Source: Atractiella rhizophila (lineage: Eukaryota). Taken from it: a stretch of 43,973 nucleotides of DNA. Position numbers and translations under genes: made by a program. Below the pieces are notes generated by a model. It searched no databases and was not told the DNA's origin. It saw only the letters and a program-made list of their open reading frames with translations. The stretch's first letter is position 1. Every line of letters begins with the position of its first letter. The stretch lies in contig MU271534.1 in assembly GCA_021432655.1 (NCBI GenBank), forward strand, positions 1-43,973. Reading direction: 5' to 3'. Below, in pieces: positions 28,291 to 43,973 of this stretch.

Positions 28291-31200
28291 TCACTCAACC
28301 TTCGTAGCATCCTCATCAAGCTCATCTTTATCCTCGTTCGGAGCTCGACCTCCCTTCTCATCTCCGCTTCCTCCATTGAATGAAATTTCATCTTCCGAAT
28401 AAAAAAACTCTTCAGGCTTGTCAAGTTCTTTCTGTTTCTCCTTCTTCTTTTCCTCCACCTTTTTTGCAGGTTCAACCACCACGTTGTCTTCTGCACCAGG
28501 ATCATTAGAACTGGAATTGAAAGCAGTAGGAGGAGGAGGAGCCGAGGGACCGTTGGTAGAGCTTCCAGGAAGTTGTATCGTCGACATGTTTTGTACCTGT
28601 GCCTCTGGTCGTGGATGCTTTGGTGGTCTTCCTCGCTTCCGCGGTGGGTCTCCAGGCTGTCGACGAGTGTATGGACGTTTCTGCTTCGGAGCTGGTTGAG
28701 CCGTCGTCGTGTCGAGCGCTGCGGAAGGTTTAGATGTAACTTCCGCTTTGGGAAGAATCTGTTGAGGAGGAGATGTAGGTTTCGGTTTAGAGGAATGGGA
28801 GAAGTCATCCGCTCCGGACGAAGTAGGTGGAGCGAAAAAGGATTGGCGGCCGAGGGAGTTTTGGGATATGGCTAATAATGCACAAAACTGGTTAGAAGGA
28901 ATGATTTGGAGCTCGAGGAGCAAGCATACAACAGTCGATGCAAAGGTTATCCCGGTGCTGAGGGGCTTGGCGACAATTGGTACAAAGCTCCCGTTGACCC
29001 TCCGTGTCACCGCCAGACGGATTAATAGCCAGCATATACCCGGAAGGTGGAGGAGGGTACAAAGCAGGGGCACCTGCACGATTAGAGAGTTTAATCATCC
29101 CAAAATAAAAGAGGGCAGGAATAAACGTACCCATTGTAGCCCCTCCAGTCCCCAGTTGTTGTTGCTTCTTTTTTTTGGAAGACGTTGAAGCTTGGGGTGA
29201 AGAAATAGGGGCAGCGGATGAAGGGTCTTGGTTTGGAGCGAGAGGAGGGGAACATAATTGAGGTTGTGATTGTACTTCCGTTCGAGGAGACGACTGTTGG
29301 GCGGCGGCAGGAGATGCTCGAACTGGAGCAGGAGAAGTGGTTTGATCTTCAGGAAGAGGGGCCGTTTGAGAAGGGGGAGAGTCTAGAACCGGGGGGGGAG
29401 AGAACTGTGGAGGAGGAAGTTTCTCACGTGGTGAATAAAACATTTCCTGACCCGCAGCTGGTGATGCATCGCCTTGTTCGAAGTTGGATTCAAAGTTTGG
29501 CTCTCGCAATTGGGAATGATGCTGAGGGAGAACAGCATGAGGAGGAGGTTGAGGATGAGGATAATGAGGCATGTATGTTGCCCCATTATGAGGAGGATAT
29601 TGGGCCATGGGTGCCGAACCCAACAAAAGCTCGCCGTTTCCTTTCTCGGAGTGATCCCTCCTCCTAGGATGGAAGCGATAGTCGGGATGCTTGATCTTGT
29701 GAATCTTCTTCTGCTCCTCCGCAATTTCGTGATACGGTGCCCTATCTTCGTCTGTCATCTTCTTCCAGATCTTGGATGCTTCCTTCGTTATTTGCTTGGA
29801 ATTGATCAACCCCATTGCCTTTGCCTCTTGTCTAGCCACTCGATAATGCTTCAGAAAGACAACCCAGACATTATCCGGTCTGTTGATGTGCCCTGGACTC
29901 GTCTGGCGCTGATGCCTTTTCCTCGGCCTCACCGCACTCGATCCAACCGAGGACGACATTTGCTGAGCTGAATCGGCAGGTGGATAAGGAGATGCGGATT
30001 TATCCTCTTCCACTTCTCCTTCCATCGCAGGATTAATGACTGTGTTATCTGCCAATGTATTGTCTTCGTTTCGGATCAAGAGATCTCGTTCCTGCATCGT
30101 AGGAGGACGAGGAAGAGGGGGTGTCGGAATCCGTTCTTCTTCCGATCCTTCCGGTCGAGACTCTTTCGCCTCTCTTCCCCCTCCTCTCCCTCTTCCACGT
30201 CCCCTTCCCCTCCCTCTTCCTCTCGTTGGCTTCGGCGCAGGCAGGAGTTCTTGAAAGCGTGGATCTATGAATCCACCGACTGGATGACCAAGAATTGGAA
30301 TCTGAGTACCAGGAGGAAGGGTTCCCACAGGTCGCCCGTCGCGGGTATAGAGGACTTGATCGTGAGGTCCAATGGGGAGAGGAAAATGTGGCATGTGAGG
30401 ATGTTGCACGATAGACGGGCGACGTCCATCTATGAAAGGAGGTGGACCATGACCGGGATGCCCCATTTGATACTCGTTGAAGGGATGATGGGGGATGTGA
30501 CGTCCTTCGTCTACATCCATTCGATGGGAAGACGAGGGACGATCTGACGGACCGGGAGTGTCGCGAATTGGGATGGGATCCTGTTGAGTGTTGCTCACTC
30601 GAGGTCGTTTCGAAAAGGGTTTTTGGTCCTCCTCTTCGTCGACGGTCATATCAATCACAACTCTTTCGTCATCTTCGAGACCGTCTCGACTTCGTTGTCT
30701 TTTGGAATGTGATGCTCGGGAAGGGTGTCCGTATGGAACAGGGAATCCAGGAGGAACCTATGTCCCAGATCAATATGTCGCCTAAAACCTATGGTGAAAA
30801 GGCGAAATATATACGTAGAGGGGATGGCCAGGCGGCGGACCATGGACGTAACCACCAGGAGGAGGATGTATAGGCATCATCGCGGCCATGGGAGGACTTG
30901 GATGTTGAGGATGAGCGAATGGAGGTCCATGGATGCTTCCCATTCGAGATCTCTCTCTCTCGCGTTCTGCTGCGAGGGCTCGCTCTTCCTTATTGCGTGG
31001 CACCTTATATGCGTCCCCTCCAGCTTTTTGACCTGGAAGTTGAGGTTTATACCCCTTCTCCGTGCCAAACATCGCCGTACTCCCAACTTCCCAGTTCGCT
31101 CGCGCATTCCCATCCGCCCTAACCTTCACGTGCCTCTCTCCTCCGTCTTCCCTCCCGTCCATCGAAAAGACTGTCATCAACGCGGGCGGTCTCTTCGTCG

Positions 31201-32344
31201 AAGGTCCCGAGGAAGCATGTGGCAGAACCTCATCATAAGCGGACTGCCAATTCTCAACAGCCCTCGCCTTACTCTTATGTTGACCTCTCGAGTTAGACCC
31301 ATCCTTCCTCGATCGCGTTGACTGATCTTCAAAAACTCTCGGACGCTGTTCATGGGGATCCACAATCATCTCCTCTCCATCTGATCCCACCCCCCCTTTT
31401 GCAACATCCACTCGAAAAGCAGGCTTCTTGACTTGATTCATATACTCCGCCTGCCTTCTCCTCCGCTCCTCAGCTTCCCCAGTCCTCCAATCTACCCCGG
31501 CCGAATTCCGAATGGCGTTCGTAGCCGGTGGTCCACCGTAGAAAGACTTCATGATGCTCATGTGACCGCCGAGGTCTTGACGCCAGACGTTCATCATCCA
31601 CTGATCCTTATGAATATCGGTGAGAGGAACAACGTTGTCGCGTTCGTATTGGTATGTGATGAGGTGATAGATCGTGTCCATCGTTTTGAATTCGAGGTGG
31701 CGCCTGACGAAAGGAGGTGTCTGAGAGAGGGATGTCCACGATTGACAACAGCGCGCTAACATTAGCGGATACGTGATTTCGGTGCTTTCTGACCTTTTCA
31801 TGCCCAGAGAATTGTGAGCGACTCAAGGACAGTCGCAAAGGAAAGAAACGAACCAAACGATTCCATCTTCAAATTCAGGGATACCAGAAGGACCTTTGAA
31901 CCTTTCGCCGAGTGAGTCACGTCGAACATGTTAGGAGAGAAAGACGAACACCCAAGTATTACCAGGACTCGTTACACGATACCTCGCGTCTCCCAACTTC
32001 ATCAAAAACTCAATCACGGCTGTATTCATCAGAGGGAGCTTTCCCAAGTGAGCAGCATGCACGACGAGCATGGCACATTCTTCCGTATCAACTTTTCTGG
32101 TAGCAGAGAATTCACATCAATCCTGCACTGAGCGCGGGAACGTGGGAAGTTAGGAAGCGCACCCAAACCAAGTGCTCTTCACGTCTTCGTTGAAAATTTT
32201 CTTGCCATCAGGCAGGGTCAGAAGTGGAGCGTTCGGATCGTGCTCGTCACTCAATGGTGCATGTTGTTCCGGTTGCTGAGCATGTTGAGGCGGAGGAGGT
32301 CCCCTGATATGAGGACTCTGGTGTGGTTGAGGAGAATGTTCCAT
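28291..32344 (-). CDS. Large multi-domain transcription factor: divergent Gti1/Pac2 (WOPR)-like N-terminus + RG repeat + MATA/SOX-type HMG box + CxxC-x10-CxxC + AT-hook; 7 exons, ~1,200 aa
   Basis: Introns 32162-32097, 31949-31902, 31853-31794, ~30814-30758, ~29130-29073 and ~28929-28872 link ORFs 32150-32386, 30782-31801, 28892-30658 and 28291-29079 in frame. HMG box HINRPDNVWVVFLKHYR...ITKEASKIWKKMTDEDRAPYHEIAEEQKKIHKIKHPDYRFHPRRR (~29657-29895). AT-hook RKRGRPPK (~28618-28642). Confidence 0.8.
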
Positions 32345-34201
32345 CCCACGCAAAAAAAAATACGCGTTTCTCGGGTAGGGAGACAAGGGGGCAGAATTGC
32401 GTTGTTGACAAGGGCGGGTTTATATGAAAACGGACTGAGAACAGCACAACTCAATTTGATATCATCAAACTAAACTTTGCGATCATGCGTTTTACTTTCA
32501 GCTGCTGCGGAGTGAATGGGATCTAAAACTCTGTGTCATTGACTCAATTCAACACTTTGATCGCTTGCACATGCCTGACGGTGACTGGGCAACGATTTTC
32601 TAAATTTATTGAATAGAAAATTCCGCTTTGAATACCTTCTGTCTTCTCCTTTAGCACAATCTGTGTTCCACCTTTAGCGAGATTCTTAGCCATTCCTGGC
32701 AGGACCCTGGACACATGACAGGACCAACTAATACACCTCAATTCACACGTCTTCCTTCAGCTTCCTTGTCTATTTGTGAATCATTTGTAGCCAGGCGCTC
32801 TCACAACGCAACGCTTGAGACAAGTTGAATAGATTTCGCACATTCCAGAAAGATGCAATGACAAAACAAACTTTGGCTGGAAGATAATTAAAGACACTAA
32901 ACGGTTCTAAAAACGCTCAGCATATTAGATCATCCGTAGTGTCAGATTTAAATTACTCATCCATAAATCTGCAGATGCCGGGAACAGAGCCTGATCTTGG
33001 TAGATCTTGGCTTACATGTATACTCTCGGCGCAATCAAACAAATGAAGGTTTGCAAGACAATGGCCATTGATTGAAACTGTGAAAAAAGTGGCACACGTG
33101 CATTCCTATTACTCACCCGTTGAAAGTTTAGACACTTATTCAGGAATAAGCAAAAGGCGAAAATGCCATCTCAGGGAGCTCCTGGAACTGGTCTGCTATT
33201 TAGTTGATAATCAGATTGTAGCGTTTCACGTGATTATATCTGCAGTTACATTCGGAACCTTGTTTTTGTCTGATTGAGTTTCTGCAACTGTGCGTGTACC
33301 TCCCTTCTCGCTCCTGTACATGCGAGCATCCACTCGTCCCCCTTCCTGCGTTCTCACGAGCTTGAGACTTAACCTTCTTCAAATTTACGTGATGAGGAAG
33401 AGGAATTTTCGAATGGTACTGGATTGAAAGTTCCCTCTTCTATCTGTGAGTGATTTCTTGCGCATGAAAAGGACGTTAAGACTCTCCAAGTACTGTATTT
33501 TTCATATGACTGCCGGAGGCTTACCACATGAAGACGCTTTGCTAACCTGTTGGTGTTGCAGTCTTTTGTTGTTAGCATTTTACACTACCTTGCACATTTG
33601 GCCCTACTCTCTCTTTACCTATATATAGCAATGCTGAAACACTTCCTCCTGTCCATATAACACAACACAACGTCCTGCTCTCTGATCCCCCAAGCACCAC
33701 CCGAGGCTGTGCTTTTCTTTGTCTGAGCTCAATGTCAAGCTGCAATATTGTTTTGCAGCAAATACAATCTAACTGTTGCAAACGAAATGCTCACAGGATG
33801 AGCCTGTTTATTCATTTGTTCAGACTCGAGTAAAAGCGGACACATTTTCTTATGACACGGTTGTCCAGTTGCCAACGACTCACGCTCCTTCCTTTCGTAG
33901 TTGTCAGGCAGTTAAAACAATAGCTACAATGCCCTAGTGACTAGGAAGTGGAGGACTGTGCGATTCGGTGTCAACAACAAAGCGAAAGAATGCAACCTGG
34001 AACAAGTCTCGCACGTGCGTTAATGTCGCAAACGCCGCACTATGCCGAAAATACGCATACGTTCCCCGACTTTGACCAGCCACAAGGCTTGAAACTAGAG
34101 AGCGTTCTTTCGTATATTCAGACGGCAACGCCTTTATAAAGGCCATTAGAGCTTCTCCTTCTTCAGAACTCAACCAAGTCCCCTTCAACCTCTCAAGCAA
34201 G

Positions 34202-35013
34202 ATGGCTCAACCTCTCACGGTTCCACCGCACCCCATTGGGCTGTTGCCTCAGTACACCAAACACAGTCAACCGATCGCCATAAAGATCAAAGAACATGTT
34301 TTATCTTTATCGGGAGATTCGTTCACGATTAAGGATATCGGAGATAACAGCATCGTCAAGGTGGATGGAAAGTGGATATCTCTCCACAGCAAGAAGAGTG
34401 CGTTTCCGTCACTTTTCAGGCGTTGTTCTCATGGTTATTGTCACATTATTTTTCGACTAAAGCCTTGCGAGATGCCAATACAGATGCTGAACTTTTCACC
34501 ATGAAGAAGAAGCTCTTGAGGATCCACCAAACCTATGAGCTAGTTGACGCGTCCGAAAATGTTCTGGCTGTACTAAAAGGAAAGTGGGGCATCAGCGCGA
34601 AGATCGATGTTACTTTCAAAGTGCGCATCTTCTATCATGTCCAAGCAGATAATGCAGGCTGATAGTTGGCTTGCTAGAATTTGGCTGGAAATGGAGAGGA
34701 AGTGGTCCTCAAATTGAAAGGCGATTGGTTTGACAGAAAGGCGGAGATTACTTGGGACGATAAACCGATCGCCTATATATCAAGGAACTTCTTCAATGGA
34801 AGAGGTGCGGATTATTCGTCCCTTGTCCTCTGCTCCTCTTTAATTTGCTGGCATAGAATTAATTGGTGACGCTCAGACCTACGTTGTACAGATTGCGCCG
34901 TATGGTAAGTTTGCATCTTCACTAACGTCGTCAGCTCATACGGAAATGCAGTTGATGTCGCACTCATCATTGCGGCCTGCGTTGCTCTTGATGAAAAAGA
35001 GAATGAGGACTAA
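34202..35013 (+). CDS. LURP-one-related (LOR / tubby C-terminal-like, DUF567) protein; 5 exons
   Basis: IKEHVLSLSGDSFTIKD, KVDGKWISLHSKK, LKGDWFDRKAEI, IAYISR, QTYVVQIAP and VDVALIIAACVALDEKENED*; stop at 35011-35013. Confidence 0.88.
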
Positions 35014-36037
35014 GTGCTCCCAAGCAAATTGTTGTGTAAAAGGGTTGTATACCGATCGCTTTGTGATATCCGAACGGAAGTTGAAATCTGCCAGTCAATG
35101 TAATTCAATTTATTACAACAAGTCTTTCTGTTAGTTACGAACATGTTGAGCTTCGAGGCTCGAGGAGAGCTCGAATTCATTCTAAGCTCTGTTCTCGCCC
35201 CCCTAAGCCTTGCCTTTGATTGTCAAGTGATATATTACGCACACACAACCCTGTATGAACGAATCTCTTTCACAAAGGACATTTGAGCCAGAGTCGTCAT
35301 GACCTGAAGGTCCATTTGAAAGCACGTGAGTCCAGCACATCTTCTACTCGCCACTAGCCGGATAGATCATTGACTGACATCATTTCAGGATGTACACTTG
35401 CCTGTGGAGGTACAGCAGATCCAAAGAAGTCACAAATCGCCTGCACGGACCCTCGAACTTTATTTAAGGTTCGAGGTTGACAGGAGAAGCTTCGAGAGGC
35501 AGCTGCAGGGAGCTGAATTTCCCTCGTCGACTTAGCAAAGACGTTCCAGTTGATGGAAGGGTAATCGCAACCGGAGTTTCGAACCACTGATTGAGCTGAT
35601 CTTCAGACTTCAAGAGTCAAGTTCAATGAAAATGACACAGACCTACCCACGAACATTCACATTTGCATTGAGTCCTTGCGGATGACATCCTCGTCTCCTC
35701 TCAACAAAACCCAGGTCGATCATCCAAGATTTCTAATGAGATCCCGTAGCGGAAACGAGACTCCGAAATTTGGGCATAATGCTCTCGAAAATTGTTTTAA
35801 AGGTACGTACCATCCCTACATCACGCTTTTACAGCTCTAAAACCTCTAGAAACTAACATCACCTCCGTCTTGAAGCTCTTCGAAGCTTGAACACGAAGAA
35901 CGTAACAATAATCTCTTCTCGGCTCTCTATCCTCCATAAAAGCAGCCACAATGTCTACACTACTCACCATCAACTCGCACTCAATTCCTGCTTTGTCTTC
36001 AGTTGCCAATCCACAGAACTACTACTCAGTCGAACAA

Positions 36038-36823
36038 ATGGAGCCATCCTGGGTCGGGTAAGTAGCTAGTTCATCTGCCCGCATTGTACCCTGACTCTAG
36101 GCCAGACAAATTACGAGCGAAAACGATGCTTTAGTCATAGTCGTGCGTTCTTCGATCTCACAGACAAGATGTCTCATTGACTCTTTGCAGATGGCCGCTT
36201 CTCAAGGTCTTTTAGGCCGCCTGACGGATTGTCCTTCAGTGGACGAGATGAGAGCCATGGCTTGGTCTGGTGAGATTCTGCTCACTCGTTAAGTTGACGC
36301 TGAAATTGGCGACAATAGGTGCTGTTTATGTGTATGTTATCTCTCAACTCAAGTTTCTCTTCTGAAACAGAAGTGGCAGTTGGGAACAGAATGAGGCGGA
36401 ATTTTCTAGATGGGCGGATGGACTCAATTGGCAGGTCTTCCCCCTTTTCTTTCATTCGTACTCTGATAATAGCTTGGAATCGTAGGGCATCTACACAGCG
36501 TCAAGGCTCCTTTACTATTAGCACTGTTGGTTCTCCAAATGTTTTATTTGGGGATATTCCTCTCATACTGATTCGCTGTAGGCATCAGCTTCTCCCGCTG
36601 GAAGCCGGTTCATGAAGCAACAAATTCGGTGCACGACATCTGATGGACATATTCTATATCTCGTGGCATATATTTCAACTCGTGAGCATCTTTCCAGCCG
36701 TGCTCCTGCTACAGCGCTAACCAGTGAATAGGTGACATTCCAACGGCGCAGAGGGTTGCGGATGACCCGCTTCTAGGTTCTATTCGTGTCCCTCCCGGTT
36801 TCTTCACCACTAGGGCGGTTTAA
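36038..36823 (+). CDS. Minimal stand-alone Gti1/Pac2 (WOPR)-like protein, ~143 aa, 8 exons
   Basis: Introns 36058-36105, 36143-36190, 36270-36318, 36332-36379, 36431-36485 (GC-AG), 36526-36581 and 36682-36731 give MEPSWVGQITSENDALVIVMAASQGLLGRLTDCPSVDEMRAMAWSGAVYVWEQNEAEFSRWADGLNWASTQRQGSFTISTASASPAGSRFMKQQIRCTTSDGHILYLVAYISTRDIPTAQRVADDPLLGSIRVPPGFFTTRAV*. This matches the order of WOPR consensus blocks (T.xG.I...DAL; SG.VFVW; RWxDG..W; HL.xY; DP.L..I). Confidence 0.75.
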
Positions 36824-37041
36824 ATTTGCAAGAAAGCGGCAATTTGGACGATAGACGTATCAACGTTGCATGACTGCATGGGATTCATAACACTGAAAAG
36901 TTCATAGGATCATCCGTCATTTCTTTTCATTATGTAACCTCATCGTGCGCAGTGCACTTCAAACTCCAATATTGTTTCAATGGTTGTTTTGCAATACAAC
37001 ATTTCAGTTCACTCTATACATCACTGCTTCTCTACGACTTC

Positions 37042-38301
37042 TTAAGCATCTAAAGTCTCCAAGGATGACCCAGCCTCATCGATATCTAGGACGCGCCAAC
37101 TTGCCTCAATCTGACTCGTCGCACCTGGCATGGGTGTATCTCGGAAAATGCCCACCACCGCTTCGCCTATCGCTTCAAAATTGTCCGTTGCAAGAGCGAG
37201 GATAGTTGGACCTGCACCGGAGAGACAGATGCCCAACAGTCCAGGAAGAGAGTCTGGGGAAAGCGATAGGATAATTGGAAGCGCTGGGATCTGTACAAAT
37301 AATTTCAGTTCTGGGACCTGAAGAGGCTCAAGACAAACGTACCAGGCCTGCGCGGAAGGGTTGGTGGAGACGATCCTGCATCCCTTCGTATATCACCGCT
37401 GCATTCGGTGGAGCAGTAGCGAGCGCAGTAGTCAACACTGCTAAGCGTTGAAGGTTGAAAACCTGCACATGTGTTGTCAACAATTATGAGCAAGGATGGA
37501 GTAGAAGGACGGACTGTATCTGCTCTAGAGTATTGGGGTGGGAGGACATTTCTAGCTGCAGCCGTCGACACCTCAAATTTAGGAATTACAACTATGGCCT
37601 TAATGGCGTTGTTAATCTGGTATTTAACCCAGTTTCCAATCCTCCCCGGCGGGGCAGGAGGCTTTGGAATAAGACCCCAACTCTCATTCGCATCGCTCGG
37701 AAACTCGGGAAGGACTTCAGACAGGGGGACAGAGGTAGCAGAAATCTCTGAAGGGTTAAGAGAGCGGATGAAGGAGCCCACGAAACCGCCGAGAAGTGCA
37801 GCAGTAACGTTGTCTGGATGACGTTCCACCATGAGGGTGAAATCGAGCGCTCGAGAGCTCGAGAGAGATAGATCGCCAATGGCTGATGCAAGAAGGACAC
37901 CAGCGACTACCGCTGCGCCGGAGGAGCCCAGACCCCTCCCGAACGGGATATCATTGGTCACGTCCACCTCGAGCTGAGTCTTTGTCGCTCCAGGAAGGTC
38001 AAAAAAGGACATGATACCATGACATCGAAGCACATAAAGTGCCACTCGTGTGATGAGGTTCTTGTAAGGATCGAGGGGAGCTTCTGAAGAGCCTTCGCCG
38101 CTATATCGCAGCACGGGATGAGACGGCTGCTCCGTAGCGATTAACCGTACGTCAAGGGTGAGGTAAAGCTTGTAAGCCAGTCCAAGGACGTCAAATCCTG
38201 GCCCAATATTTGCTGAAGTGGCTGGTACACGTATTCGCCATCGTTTCTAAATGCCTTGTTGAGCATTTCATTAGCAGTACTGGACTTACTTCTGCTGTCA
38301 T
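37042..38301 (-). CDS. THR1: Homoserine kinase (GHMP family)
   Basis: MTAE|KRWRIRVPATSANIGPGFDVLG, NDIPFGRGLGSSGAAVVAG, VERHPDNVTAALLGGF, MQDRLHQP and GICLSGAGPTILALA; stop at 37042. Confidence 0.95.
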
Positions 38302-41651: not shown

Positions 41652-41813
41652 CTATCGGTGCAATACACCTTTTAATTTCTCGTTTTCTGATATTTTGCGT
41701 CCCCGAAAGAATACTATATTNNNNNNNNNNNNNNNNNNNNNNNNNCTATCGGTGCAATACACCTTTTAATTTCTCGTTTCTGATATTTTGCGTCCCCGAA
41801 AGAATACTATATT
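41652..41813. other. Assembly gap (N 41721-41746) with ~68-nt duplicated flanks
   Basis: ctatcggtgcaatacacc...gaaagaatactatatt occurs on both sides of the Ns and differs only in a T-run length, typical of an unmerged contig overlap. Confidence 0.9.
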
Positions 41814-43973
41814 CGCACCACAAAACTTGACACCTTTTTTCAACACTGAATTTGGCAGAGAGAAGCAGCTCTCTTCATTCAAGCAGGGACATGCCGAAAC
41901 ACATATATCTTATCTTTGATTTTTTGCGTGGAAAGGAGTGAATAAGATCAATACTCTTATAAATATTCACCTCCAAAGAGGATACCTCTTTGGCCCACCA
42001 ATGGACAAGTTGACGGAGTGCGTAAAAGGCGGGATTTGGCTGGGGTGGGGCAAACTCCGACAGCCAAACTTTGTTCTGTCGGACTTTACACAGCAAATTG
42101 TCCCTCACAGAACTGCTCTTCACGTTTACCCTTCCTACTGCTTCAAAAGAGCTGCAACAGCTTAGATGCTTGGTACAAGTGTAGACAAGATTGATGAGAA
42201 TGTTATAGCAAAGTTTGAAGGAAATTGGAAGTCGGTTGTCTAAGTTAGAGATGGATTTTCAATCTGTCCCATTGGTGGGTACTGTCCCACACGTGGTGGC
42301 AAATACAGTAGAATCGAAGTGTGATCGCGTCCGAACATTGCCTCAATATGTCTCAAGGATTGCAAATGCAGCAAGGAATGCGAACGCATTGTTTGTTATT
42401 TGCCTGCTTGTTTTGCCGCAGCAAACCTTCTATGCGATAAGGTTGGTCATATCGAAATCATTCCAAGTTTGCCATTAGTATTGGACACTTGAACCAACTT
42501 GAACCTGAGCGCTTGAACTTGAAGAATAAACCAGATTTGCACAGTGAGAACGTGTTACTCGTGCATCCTACAGAGACAAGAGGTGCGTCTGATTCCACTT
42601 TGCCAAACTAACTTGGAGCTTTCATAGTCTTGGTTGACAGAATATTCAAGGTAAGAATTGTTTCTAATAGAAATGTTTATGTAGAAACCGAGAAATCGGT
42701 CTGTTTTTGCTGCGTACGACCCGGAGGAGGGTCTAGTAAATGAAAATCAACCTCAGTGGAAGAAACTGAAGACTTTGCGCCGCGTTCAAACGCGTCATTT
42801 AATATTTTCACTCTCCCATTCTTAAGCTGTTGTGAAGGTGGAAATTTACTAGGACGTTCGTTCTCTTTCTGTATCACTACGCGTCGCTGTTCACTTTCCC
42901 TTGACGGAAGGCACGAGACCGTTGAGTGATTCATGTGATGAGAAGCGTACAATTGAAGTGGAGTGTTTTGGTTTCTCACTCTGGCGACTTACTGTTGTTT
43001 CCTCCTGAATATACGCTCACTTTCTATCTCTGGAGCAAGGAAAACGGAAGATGCGGTTTCGAACAGAAGTCTCAAACATCCAAACCTTTACACGTTTGTC
43101 CCTGTCCCTTCCTCCTTCATATATGGAGACACCGATTGAAATGAAATGGAACTTACAGGTCTTGTCGGATCCCTCGTACCCTTCTCTCCTGACGCTGCAA
43201 TTCTCAAACTCACTCCTTCCAAGGTCTGCCTCGCCGCATGGTCCTACCGCTTCTGAGTCTTTCTAGCCAGTATTGCTGATCGTTGGACTATGGTAGATTC
43301 ACTTGATTTGCGCCTCGCCATCCGGGACTGGTTTAAATGATGAAGAAGAGGACGAGCTCGAGAGGTTCCAGGGAGAGAGCGTGAGGGGAGGAGGTGGGGG
43401 TTGTCAAGTATGGAGGTCAGTCTCTTCACTCTTGTCTCCCCTCTCGCTTCCTGGCTTTTATTAATTTTCTCTTGTGACGTGTTGGATGGATAACAAGTAA
43501 TATTAACGAATCACTCATCTTCTCCGATTATCGAATAGAATCAAACAACCAAAATGAGATATACTTGGAGATTCAATCGCTTGACTCTATGCACGTACGA
43601 CATCTATATCATCATTCTGCATTTGATGCTTGTAAACTGAGGAAGCGAATAGCGAGCTCTGAAGTCGGCCGCCGAAGCTTCATCGCTCATAATGCGACTT
43701 TGCAAAAAGGGAGGGAAGCCGATACTCTCCCTAGATATCAGAGTAGCGGTGCGTCACCGTCCGCTGTATCCCTCAGATTACTTCTTTCTTAGTTTCCATG
43801 CCTCATTCTGACCTAATATTGGCACGGGAAAACAGACGATGTCAAATCGCGAGACTCTGATTGTCCAAGATATCGCAATAAAAGTCCTGAAGCCATCGGA
43901 GATGAATTCTTTTACCGAACCATTGTGCCCAGAACCCCCGGTGCTTCCCTCTCTCCTATTCCACTCACCGCCG

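Follow-up and report, generated by a model that had tools for sequence, protein, structure and literature searches.

A transcribed, tail-less WOPR paralog of Atractiella rhizophila that has lost most of the conserved polar residues of its family

The window, i.e., the whole stretch of 43,973 nucleotides analyzed here, carries on its plus strand a small gene of Atractiella rhizophila whose product, P0001, belongs to the WOPR (Gti1/Pac2) family. The splice model read from the sequence has 519 nt of coding sequence for 172 aa and seven coding introns of 48, 48, 49, 48, 55, 56, and 50 nt, with a frame that stays open to a TAA at 36821-36823. The transcript was followed in the spliced contigs of a single public run (X1), whose type is off record (not recorded as RNA). 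These contigs cover positions 35483 to 36977 and add two 5′ UTR introns to the model, and the transcript has at least ten exons. Its features, all on the plus strand, are as follows.

35483..35560, plus: first covered 5′ UTR exon (run X1); the true start is perhaps further upstream
35561..35606, plus: 5′ UTR intron A, 46 nt, GT-AG; joint in run X1
35607..35802, plus: second 5′ UTR exon, carrying five of the six upstream AUGs
35682..36394, plus: out-of-frame upstream ORF in the spliced mRNA, 148 codons (107 in the second copy)
35803..35875, plus: 5′ UTR intron B, 73 nt, GT-AG; joint in run X1
35876..35950, plus: last part of the leader (run X1)
35951..36057, plus: coding exon 1, with the ATG at 35951, a 29-aa low-confidence N-terminal extension, the second ATG at 36038, and the start of WOPRa
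36058..36105, plus: intron 1, 48 nt, phase 2 in Gly36; joint in run X1
36106..36142, plus: coding exon 2 (model and run X1)
36143..36190, plus: intron 2, 48 nt, phase 0; joint in run X1
36191..36269, plus: coding exon 3, with D-C-P and E-M where the family has R-R-L and E-R
36270..36318, plus: intron 3, 49 nt, phase 1; loose ends in run X1, and aligner
36319..36331, plus: micro-exon (exon 4), 13 nt, a beta strand of WOPRa; loose ends of run X1 at 36272 and 36380 read through it
36332..36379, plus: intron 4, 48 nt, phase 2; loose ends in run X1, and aligner
36380..36430, plus: coding exon 5, recognition-loop region, S-R-W-A-D-G-L-N-W against the family's K/R-R-W-T-D-G-x-x-W
36431..36485, plus: intron 5, 55 nt, non-canonical GC-AG, phase 2 in Trp96; run X1 joint, aligner, and public protein agree
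36486..36525, plus: coding exon 6, end of WOPRa, A-S-T-Q against the family's S-P-S-R
36526..36581, plus: intron 6, 56 nt, phase 0; joint in run X1
36582..36681, plus: coding exon 7, linker of about 10 aa and WOPRb strands
36682..36731, plus: intron 7, 50 nt, phase 1; joint in run X1
36732..36823, plus: final part of the coding sequence, with the end of WOPRb and the stop codon; no tail follows
36824..36977, plus: 3′ UTR as covered by run X1; the contig continues through the stop

A spliced aligner guided by a WOPR profile built without P0001 returned the same seven introns with a score of 159, compared to 6 to 14 for eight random stretches of the window and 7 for the opposite strand. The X1 contigs also support all seven, with joints at introns 1, 2, 5, 6, and 7 and loose ends crossing introns 3 and 4. 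The uninterrupted frame across seven introns of 48 to 56 nt that the original prediction had described was therefore recovered by the model, the independent aligner, and the contigs, and the proposed 13-nt exon is read from exon 3 through exon 4 to exon 5 by the loose ends. For intron 5, a GT donor at 36435 was ruled out because the contig joint spans 55 nt and fits the GC donor, and an alternative donor for intron 6 at 36530 is gone in a second copy of the gene on contig C57. The gene is real, and it is spliced and expressed as modeled; since X1 is one run, available as contigs, it reports that the gene is expressed, but expression levels cannot be ranked from its depths.

The product is most likely the 172-aa protein that starts at the ATG at 35951. 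This codon was preferred because it is in frame, lies within the transcript, has a good context (gccacaATGT), is the start of the public model, and opens an extension holding two silent changes between the copies. The start at 36038, and with it the 143-aa product first proposed, is less favored, being the second ATG only, which may be used through leaky scanning. With an intron-retaining 63-aa piece as the query, one public protein was matched, deposited twice as a hypothetical protein (KAH8918001.1 and KAH8927027.1); it agrees letter for letter with our independent splice model, and its record already has PF09729 precomputed. The locus had been described as a hidden 8-exon gene, liable to be missed or mis-modeled by automated annotation. 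It does have eight coding exons and no long ORF, but its transcript is longer by the 5′ UTR exons and the public model (KAH8918001.1) is exact. In the window, no ORF of at least 100 aa lies over the gene, none of five exon pieces gave a match in an exon-level Pfam search, and a six-frame search of the genome for PF09729, which gave 25 matches, passed over the locus.

The spliced leader is at least 349 nt long and holds six upstream AUGs, with upstream ORFs of 28, 19/17, and 12 codons in addition to the out-of-frame ORF, which overlaps the main start in both copies. The latter was rejected as a second protein, as all six of its changed codons are non-silent and one of them is a stop in the second copy. 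An intron-containing leader with this many upstream AUGs would be expected to give low or conditional translation, and the long leader of WOR1 is reported to reduce translation (PMC4552353). Just upstream of the first covered base lies an inverted repeat (35451-35476) with 8-bp arms and an AT-rich core, each half of which is one mismatch away from a WOPR site. Similarity of this degree is expected by chance, as no enrichment of WOPR sites was found in the window (30 one-mismatch matches versus 34 expected).

Three further genes flank this locus. A convergent GHMP-kinase gene (minus strand, 37031-38246; PF00288, E = 7e-14) is spliced in run X1, which removes an intron at about 37291-37342. On the other side lies a probable LOR (LURP-one-related) gene (plus strand, 34076-35013; weak Pfam matches, E = 0.03 to 0.06), the end of which was guessed from sequence. 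It separates the small WOPR gene from a WOPR-like/HMG-box gene on the minus strand (28291-32344), whose ATG at 32344 is 3.6 kb upstream of the small WOPR start codon and which encodes a highly diverged WOPR-like head (aligner score of 41) with an HMG box downstream (PF00505, E = 4e-10). Copies of this neighbor, about 91% identical, are found on contig C3 (one full, one partial), with a fragment on contig C144; the public model of a C3 copy (P0153) begins after the WOPR-like head.

P0001 could be imagined as the dedicated partner of the HMG-box neighbor in a two-gene module, a reading that we consider very unlikely. The modeled head of the neighbor and the small gene have three intron positions in common (columns 36/2, 79/2, and 96/2), the splice sites of the head are kept in the two C3 copies, and both WOPR heads are acidic and degenerate. 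However, common introns speak for common descent and not for partnership, the tree does not join the two sequences (both on long branches), and the neighbor was copied to C3 and C144 by itself, no small WOPR gene having been found beside these copies within the stretches searched (35 kb on C3, 10 kb on C144). The observations support common ancestry of the two genes but, given these solitary copies and the probable LOR gene in between, not a functional pairing.

The second copy of the small WOPR gene lies on contig C57, which matches the window colinearly along 8.2 kb, with the overlap lying at the ends of both contigs, at identities of 97.8% (over 6.5 kb) and 92.8%. About 600 bases of the window (41714-42312) are missing from C57. 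Given the colinear overlap at the contig ends, the C57 copy is probably the other allele, and an independent paralog is less likely; it may also stem from a recent segmental duplication. The splice sites are intact in both copies, and the coding sequences differ by four silent and no amino acid changes, two of the silent ones falling in the N-terminal extension. Neutrality gives such a pattern a probability of about 0.003 to 0.011, in a test that rests on four changes.

These comparisons bear on the reading that P0001 is a leftover duplicate under relaxed selection, transcribed yet nearly or entirely functionless, as one among the many drifting copies of the WOPR expansion in this genome. No ortholog above about 40% identity was found among 1.84 billion representatives or in a 5.8-billion set, the branch of P0001 is long (1.75), the genome holds broken WOPR copies (L017 and L023), and the six upstream AUGs in the leader would also suit a decaying gene. 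Nonetheless, we regard drift as unlikely: the changes between the copies are all silent, all nine introns are spliced with every splice site intact in both copies, the frame is open despite about 32% identity to the nearest paralog, and, as described below, the losses fall mainly on polar positions and spare the core. The search among the 1.84 billion representatives returned 883 matches at E ≤ 0.001, and the 150 listed are 24 to 41% identical to P0001 (itself aside); a metagenome scan for P0001 gave 384 pattern matches, none of which was confirmed.

In fungi, shape, sporulation, and host colonization are under the control of WOPR proteins as master regulators, and most fungi are described as having two of them (PMC4917244, PMC6243373). 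That P0001 is one of them, as first proposed, was borne out by a Pfam search, in which PF09729 (Gti1_Pac2) matched residues 33-107 with 54.5 bits against a cut-off of 23.6 (E = 2e-14), and by its fold match to Wor1. A WOPR profile built without P0001 was covered in one stretch over columns 1-136 of 138, indicating that WOPRa and WOPRb are both present. An AlphaFold2 model, for which an alignment of 80 WOPR sequences from the 150 matches listed served as a guide, has a mean pLDDT of 89.8, with the first 30 residues of low confidence. It superimposes on Wor1 (4qtk) with a Z score of 19.6 and an rmsd of 1.9 over 135 residues (Foldseek E = 7e-11), in an alignment spanned by Wor1 residues 6 to 267, and the Atlas's own model of P0001 reaches a TM score of 0.83 to a Pac2 cluster. 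The predicted structure of P0001 thus comprises the whole interlocked WOPRa/WOPRb fold. The next structural match after WOPR, in both the Foldseek and the Z search, was the N-terminal domain of Ssr4 (Z score of 6.6).

On this kept fold, the family's polar positions have been lost to an unusual degree. Over 38 columns conserved in at least 80% of 79 homologs, P0001 keeps 12 of the 17 non-polar columns and only 8 of the 21 polar ones, the lowest polar count of the 80 sequences, 61 of which keep 19 to 21. Its core has 6 lysines and arginines against a median of 15 and a net charge of −4 against a median of +5, its pI is 5.0, and no basic cluster was found in it. At nine WOPRa sites, hand-picked after viewing the alignment, P0001 keeps one, while eight or nine are kept by 132 of 146 others; three repeat proteins that did not align were left out. 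The replacements are R52S, R61D, R62C, R68M, K/R88S, T91A, S97A, S99T, and R100Q, with S125R and H135Y in WOPRb, and ungapped pairwise alignments at the lost sites, both to Wor1 and to a rust-fungus WOPR protein, confirm the register. The threonine of KRWTDG, kept in 137 of 146 homologs, is an alanine in the S-R-W-A-D-G of P0001; by motif count, alanine is also present at this position in 7 of 149 other listed matches. By this alignment, P0001 is the most degenerate WOPR protein among those compared at conserved polar and basic positions. Several paralogs in the genome keep merely two to four of the nine WOPRa sites, and such degeneration beyond P0001 suggests that relaxed constraint or changed specificity is common in this genome.

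From conservation, charge, and the known features of the family, we infer that the lost residues would be DNA-facing. R89, which we take to be the equivalent of the deeply inserted DNA-binding arginine, is kept in P0001, along with W90, D92, W96, K121, Y139, and the hydrophobic core, so that the recognition-loop arginine and the DxxxW motif are present (R89, W90, D92, and W96). WOPR proteins are reported to bind DNA through a loop and such an inserted arginine (PMC13729134), with the DxxxW motif stabilizing the recognition loop (PMC9252788). DNA binding requires both subdomains (PMC4917244, PMC6243373), which in Wor1 are also sufficient for it (PMC3364952, PMC4917244), and 15 residues of Wor1 contact DNA (PMC4917244). 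As for the threonine, its mutation impairs Gti1, Wor1, and Sge1 (PMC3364952), and T67A is reported to cripple Fgp1 (PMC10149712).

It is possible, if doubtful, that the retained arginine and loop still allow P0001 to bind DNA, either at WOPR sites or at a shifted motif, and that the tail-less protein blocks or represses the sites it occupies. The residues listed above would serve such binding, as would the predicted complete fold with the two subdomains that suffice in Wor1, and new basic residues adjoin lost ones (R69, R101, and R125). Against it stand the loss of most of the conserved arginines and serines and of the threonine, the negative net charge with no basic cluster, and the report that point mutations in the WOPR domains disrupt DNA binding by Wor1 (PMC5786334). 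The competitor or repressor suggested by the original prediction is weakened in the same way, since competition on DNA needs intact WOPR-site binding, yet P0001 is acidic and the most degenerate protein aligned.

The other peculiarities first noted for P0001 were a linker of only about 10 aa between the subdomains and the lack of any activation or low-complexity tail. The linker length was confirmed by measurement but is nothing special, as linkers of 10 to 13 aa occur in 13 of the genome's 25 WOPR matches according to the spliced aligner (among these 25 rows, two loci were entered twice and some are allelic or broken). The missing tail held up better: the stop codon comes about 4 residues past the domain, and the X1 contig runs on into the 3′ UTR, whereas 14 of the 25 genome rows have an in-frame continuation of more than 160 aa after the domain. 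Both subdomains are covered by 121 of the 150 listed matches, and 13 of these besides P0001 stop no more than 40 aa past the domain; of the 12 that were looked up by name, six are labeled partial. Atlas clusters with short representatives (153 to 193 aa) were also found, one named a fragment. Complete tail-less WOPR proteins look uncommon, with perhaps some other cases. A 149-aa isoform of osaA is reported to lose most of the domain and is no parallel to P0001 (PMC4567300).

The genome as a whole gave 25 six-frame matches to PF09729 (L001-L025), located at 23 places, where fungi typically have two genes, and the WOPR expansion comprises roughly 20 genes. A short-linker clade, marked by R-W-x-D-H and a single intron close to column 95, accounts for most of these matches, and some of the matches are allelic or broken. 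We found no further hidden, intron-rich canonical WOPR gene: none of 11 loci hit by a pattern scored as WOPR (a looser pattern was uninformative), and P0009 as the query gave no match at a new contig. This null result is weak because a six-frame search misses intron-rich genes. P0001 is an expressed, lineage-specific WOPR (Gti1/Pac2) paralog from this large expansion. In the tree, its nearest relative is another paralog, P0008 (KAH8923439.1, L060, contig C143), with support of 98/94 and a long-branch warning. The two proteins are 32% identical, degenerate, and acidic, and both genes have introns at Gly36 and Trp96, the first of which is also common to the modeled head of the HMG-box neighbor. 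In contrast to P0001, P0008 has 455 aa, of which about 300 form a Ser/Pro-rich tail; its domain is interrupted by just two introns, arginines are kept at the R62 and R100 positions, and the loop reads R-W-Y-D-A. As the nearest relative shares two introns and has such a tail, the simplest reading is that the tail was lost in the P0001 lineage. A predicted complex of P0001 (29-172) and P0008 (5-156) scored 0.00, which speaks neither for nor against contact.

Our main reading, to which we give a probability of about 0.5, is that P0001 is a maintained, tail-less, pseudo-DNA-binding WOPR protein that acts by protein contact. It would bind the canonical WOPR site without useful affinity and would have no activation region, which together would make it a pseudo-DNA-binding protein. 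In this role, P0001 would most likely serve as a small damper or adaptor, its targets being the cofactors or partners of WOPR regulators with tails instead of the DNA sites of those regulators. The concentration of loss on polar positions, with the core kept, argues for such a maintained protein, whereas the kept R89, W90, D92, W96, and K121 and the new basic residues argue against abandoned DNA binding. A broader proposal, that a DNA-independent, selectively kept pseudo-WOPR controls the expanded WOPR factors through partners or through the factors themselves, would be rather unlikely, and an inhibitory layer of this kind for the WOPR family was not found described in the literature searched. 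Among the papers listed there, none dealt with WOPR proteins that are degenerate or lack a tail, or with the WOPR genes of Atractiella.

The family and the gene model were already known, and the unusual feature, which the original prediction did not mention, is the degeneration at conserved polar positions in a tail-less WOPR protein. A fold that is kept while its charged surface is shed, in a tail-less product verified by transcript, suggests a second, DNA-independent job for WOPR proteins. P0001 might accordingly serve as a natural separation-of-function variant for finding other WOPR binding partners. The reach of these observations is one species, a root-associated fungus, with a public gene model and a function read from sequence.

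Several known systems can be set beside P0001. MicroProteins and Id-type inhibitors are small single-domain kin of larger regulators, without effector regions or DNA-binding residues, and they work by dimerizing with the full-length factor. To our knowledge, no such dimer surface is known in WOPR proteins, and no evidence of one was found for P0001. The N-terminal domain of Ssr4, a SWI/SNF and RSC subunit of S. pombe (PDB 7k7v), belongs to the same fold clan, at 13% identity and in a separate Pfam family, and we saw no sign of a chromatin-remodeling role for P0001. Ssr4 does provide a precedent for a WOPR-type fold without support for DNA binding, as DNA binding is said to lack support for same-fold proteins such as this one (PMC9252788).

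Closer to P0001 are the short-linker WOPR proteins of rust fungi and their relatives (P0006 and P0009, Phakopsora pachyrhizi; named Gti1/Pac2 family), which are 34% identical to it and colinear over the whole domain. Judging from their motifs, these proteins are presumably Pac2-like. They have in common with P0001 the short linker, W-E-x-x-E-A, and K-Q...T-T-x-D-G...L-x-A-Y; unlike P0001, which falls outside their clade in the tree, they keep R-R-L, E-R, K-R-W-T-D, and S-P-S-R and have tails of about 270 to 390 aa. The reference systems remain Wor1 of Candida albicans and YHR177w of S. cerevisiae, whose complexes with DNA have been solved (PDB 4qtj, 4qtk, and 4m8b) and whose PDB sequences match P0001 with E values of 3e-6 and 1e-3. 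Like them, P0001 is predicted to adopt the fold over residues ~30-170 (Z scores of 18 to 19.6) with both subdomains present, and it has the R-W-x-D-G-x-x-W loop skeleton. In contrast to them, it is 20 to 25% identical in sequence, tail-less, and acidic, with a linker of ~10 aa, and it carries replacements of the KRWTDG threonine and of most of the conserved basic and polar residues.
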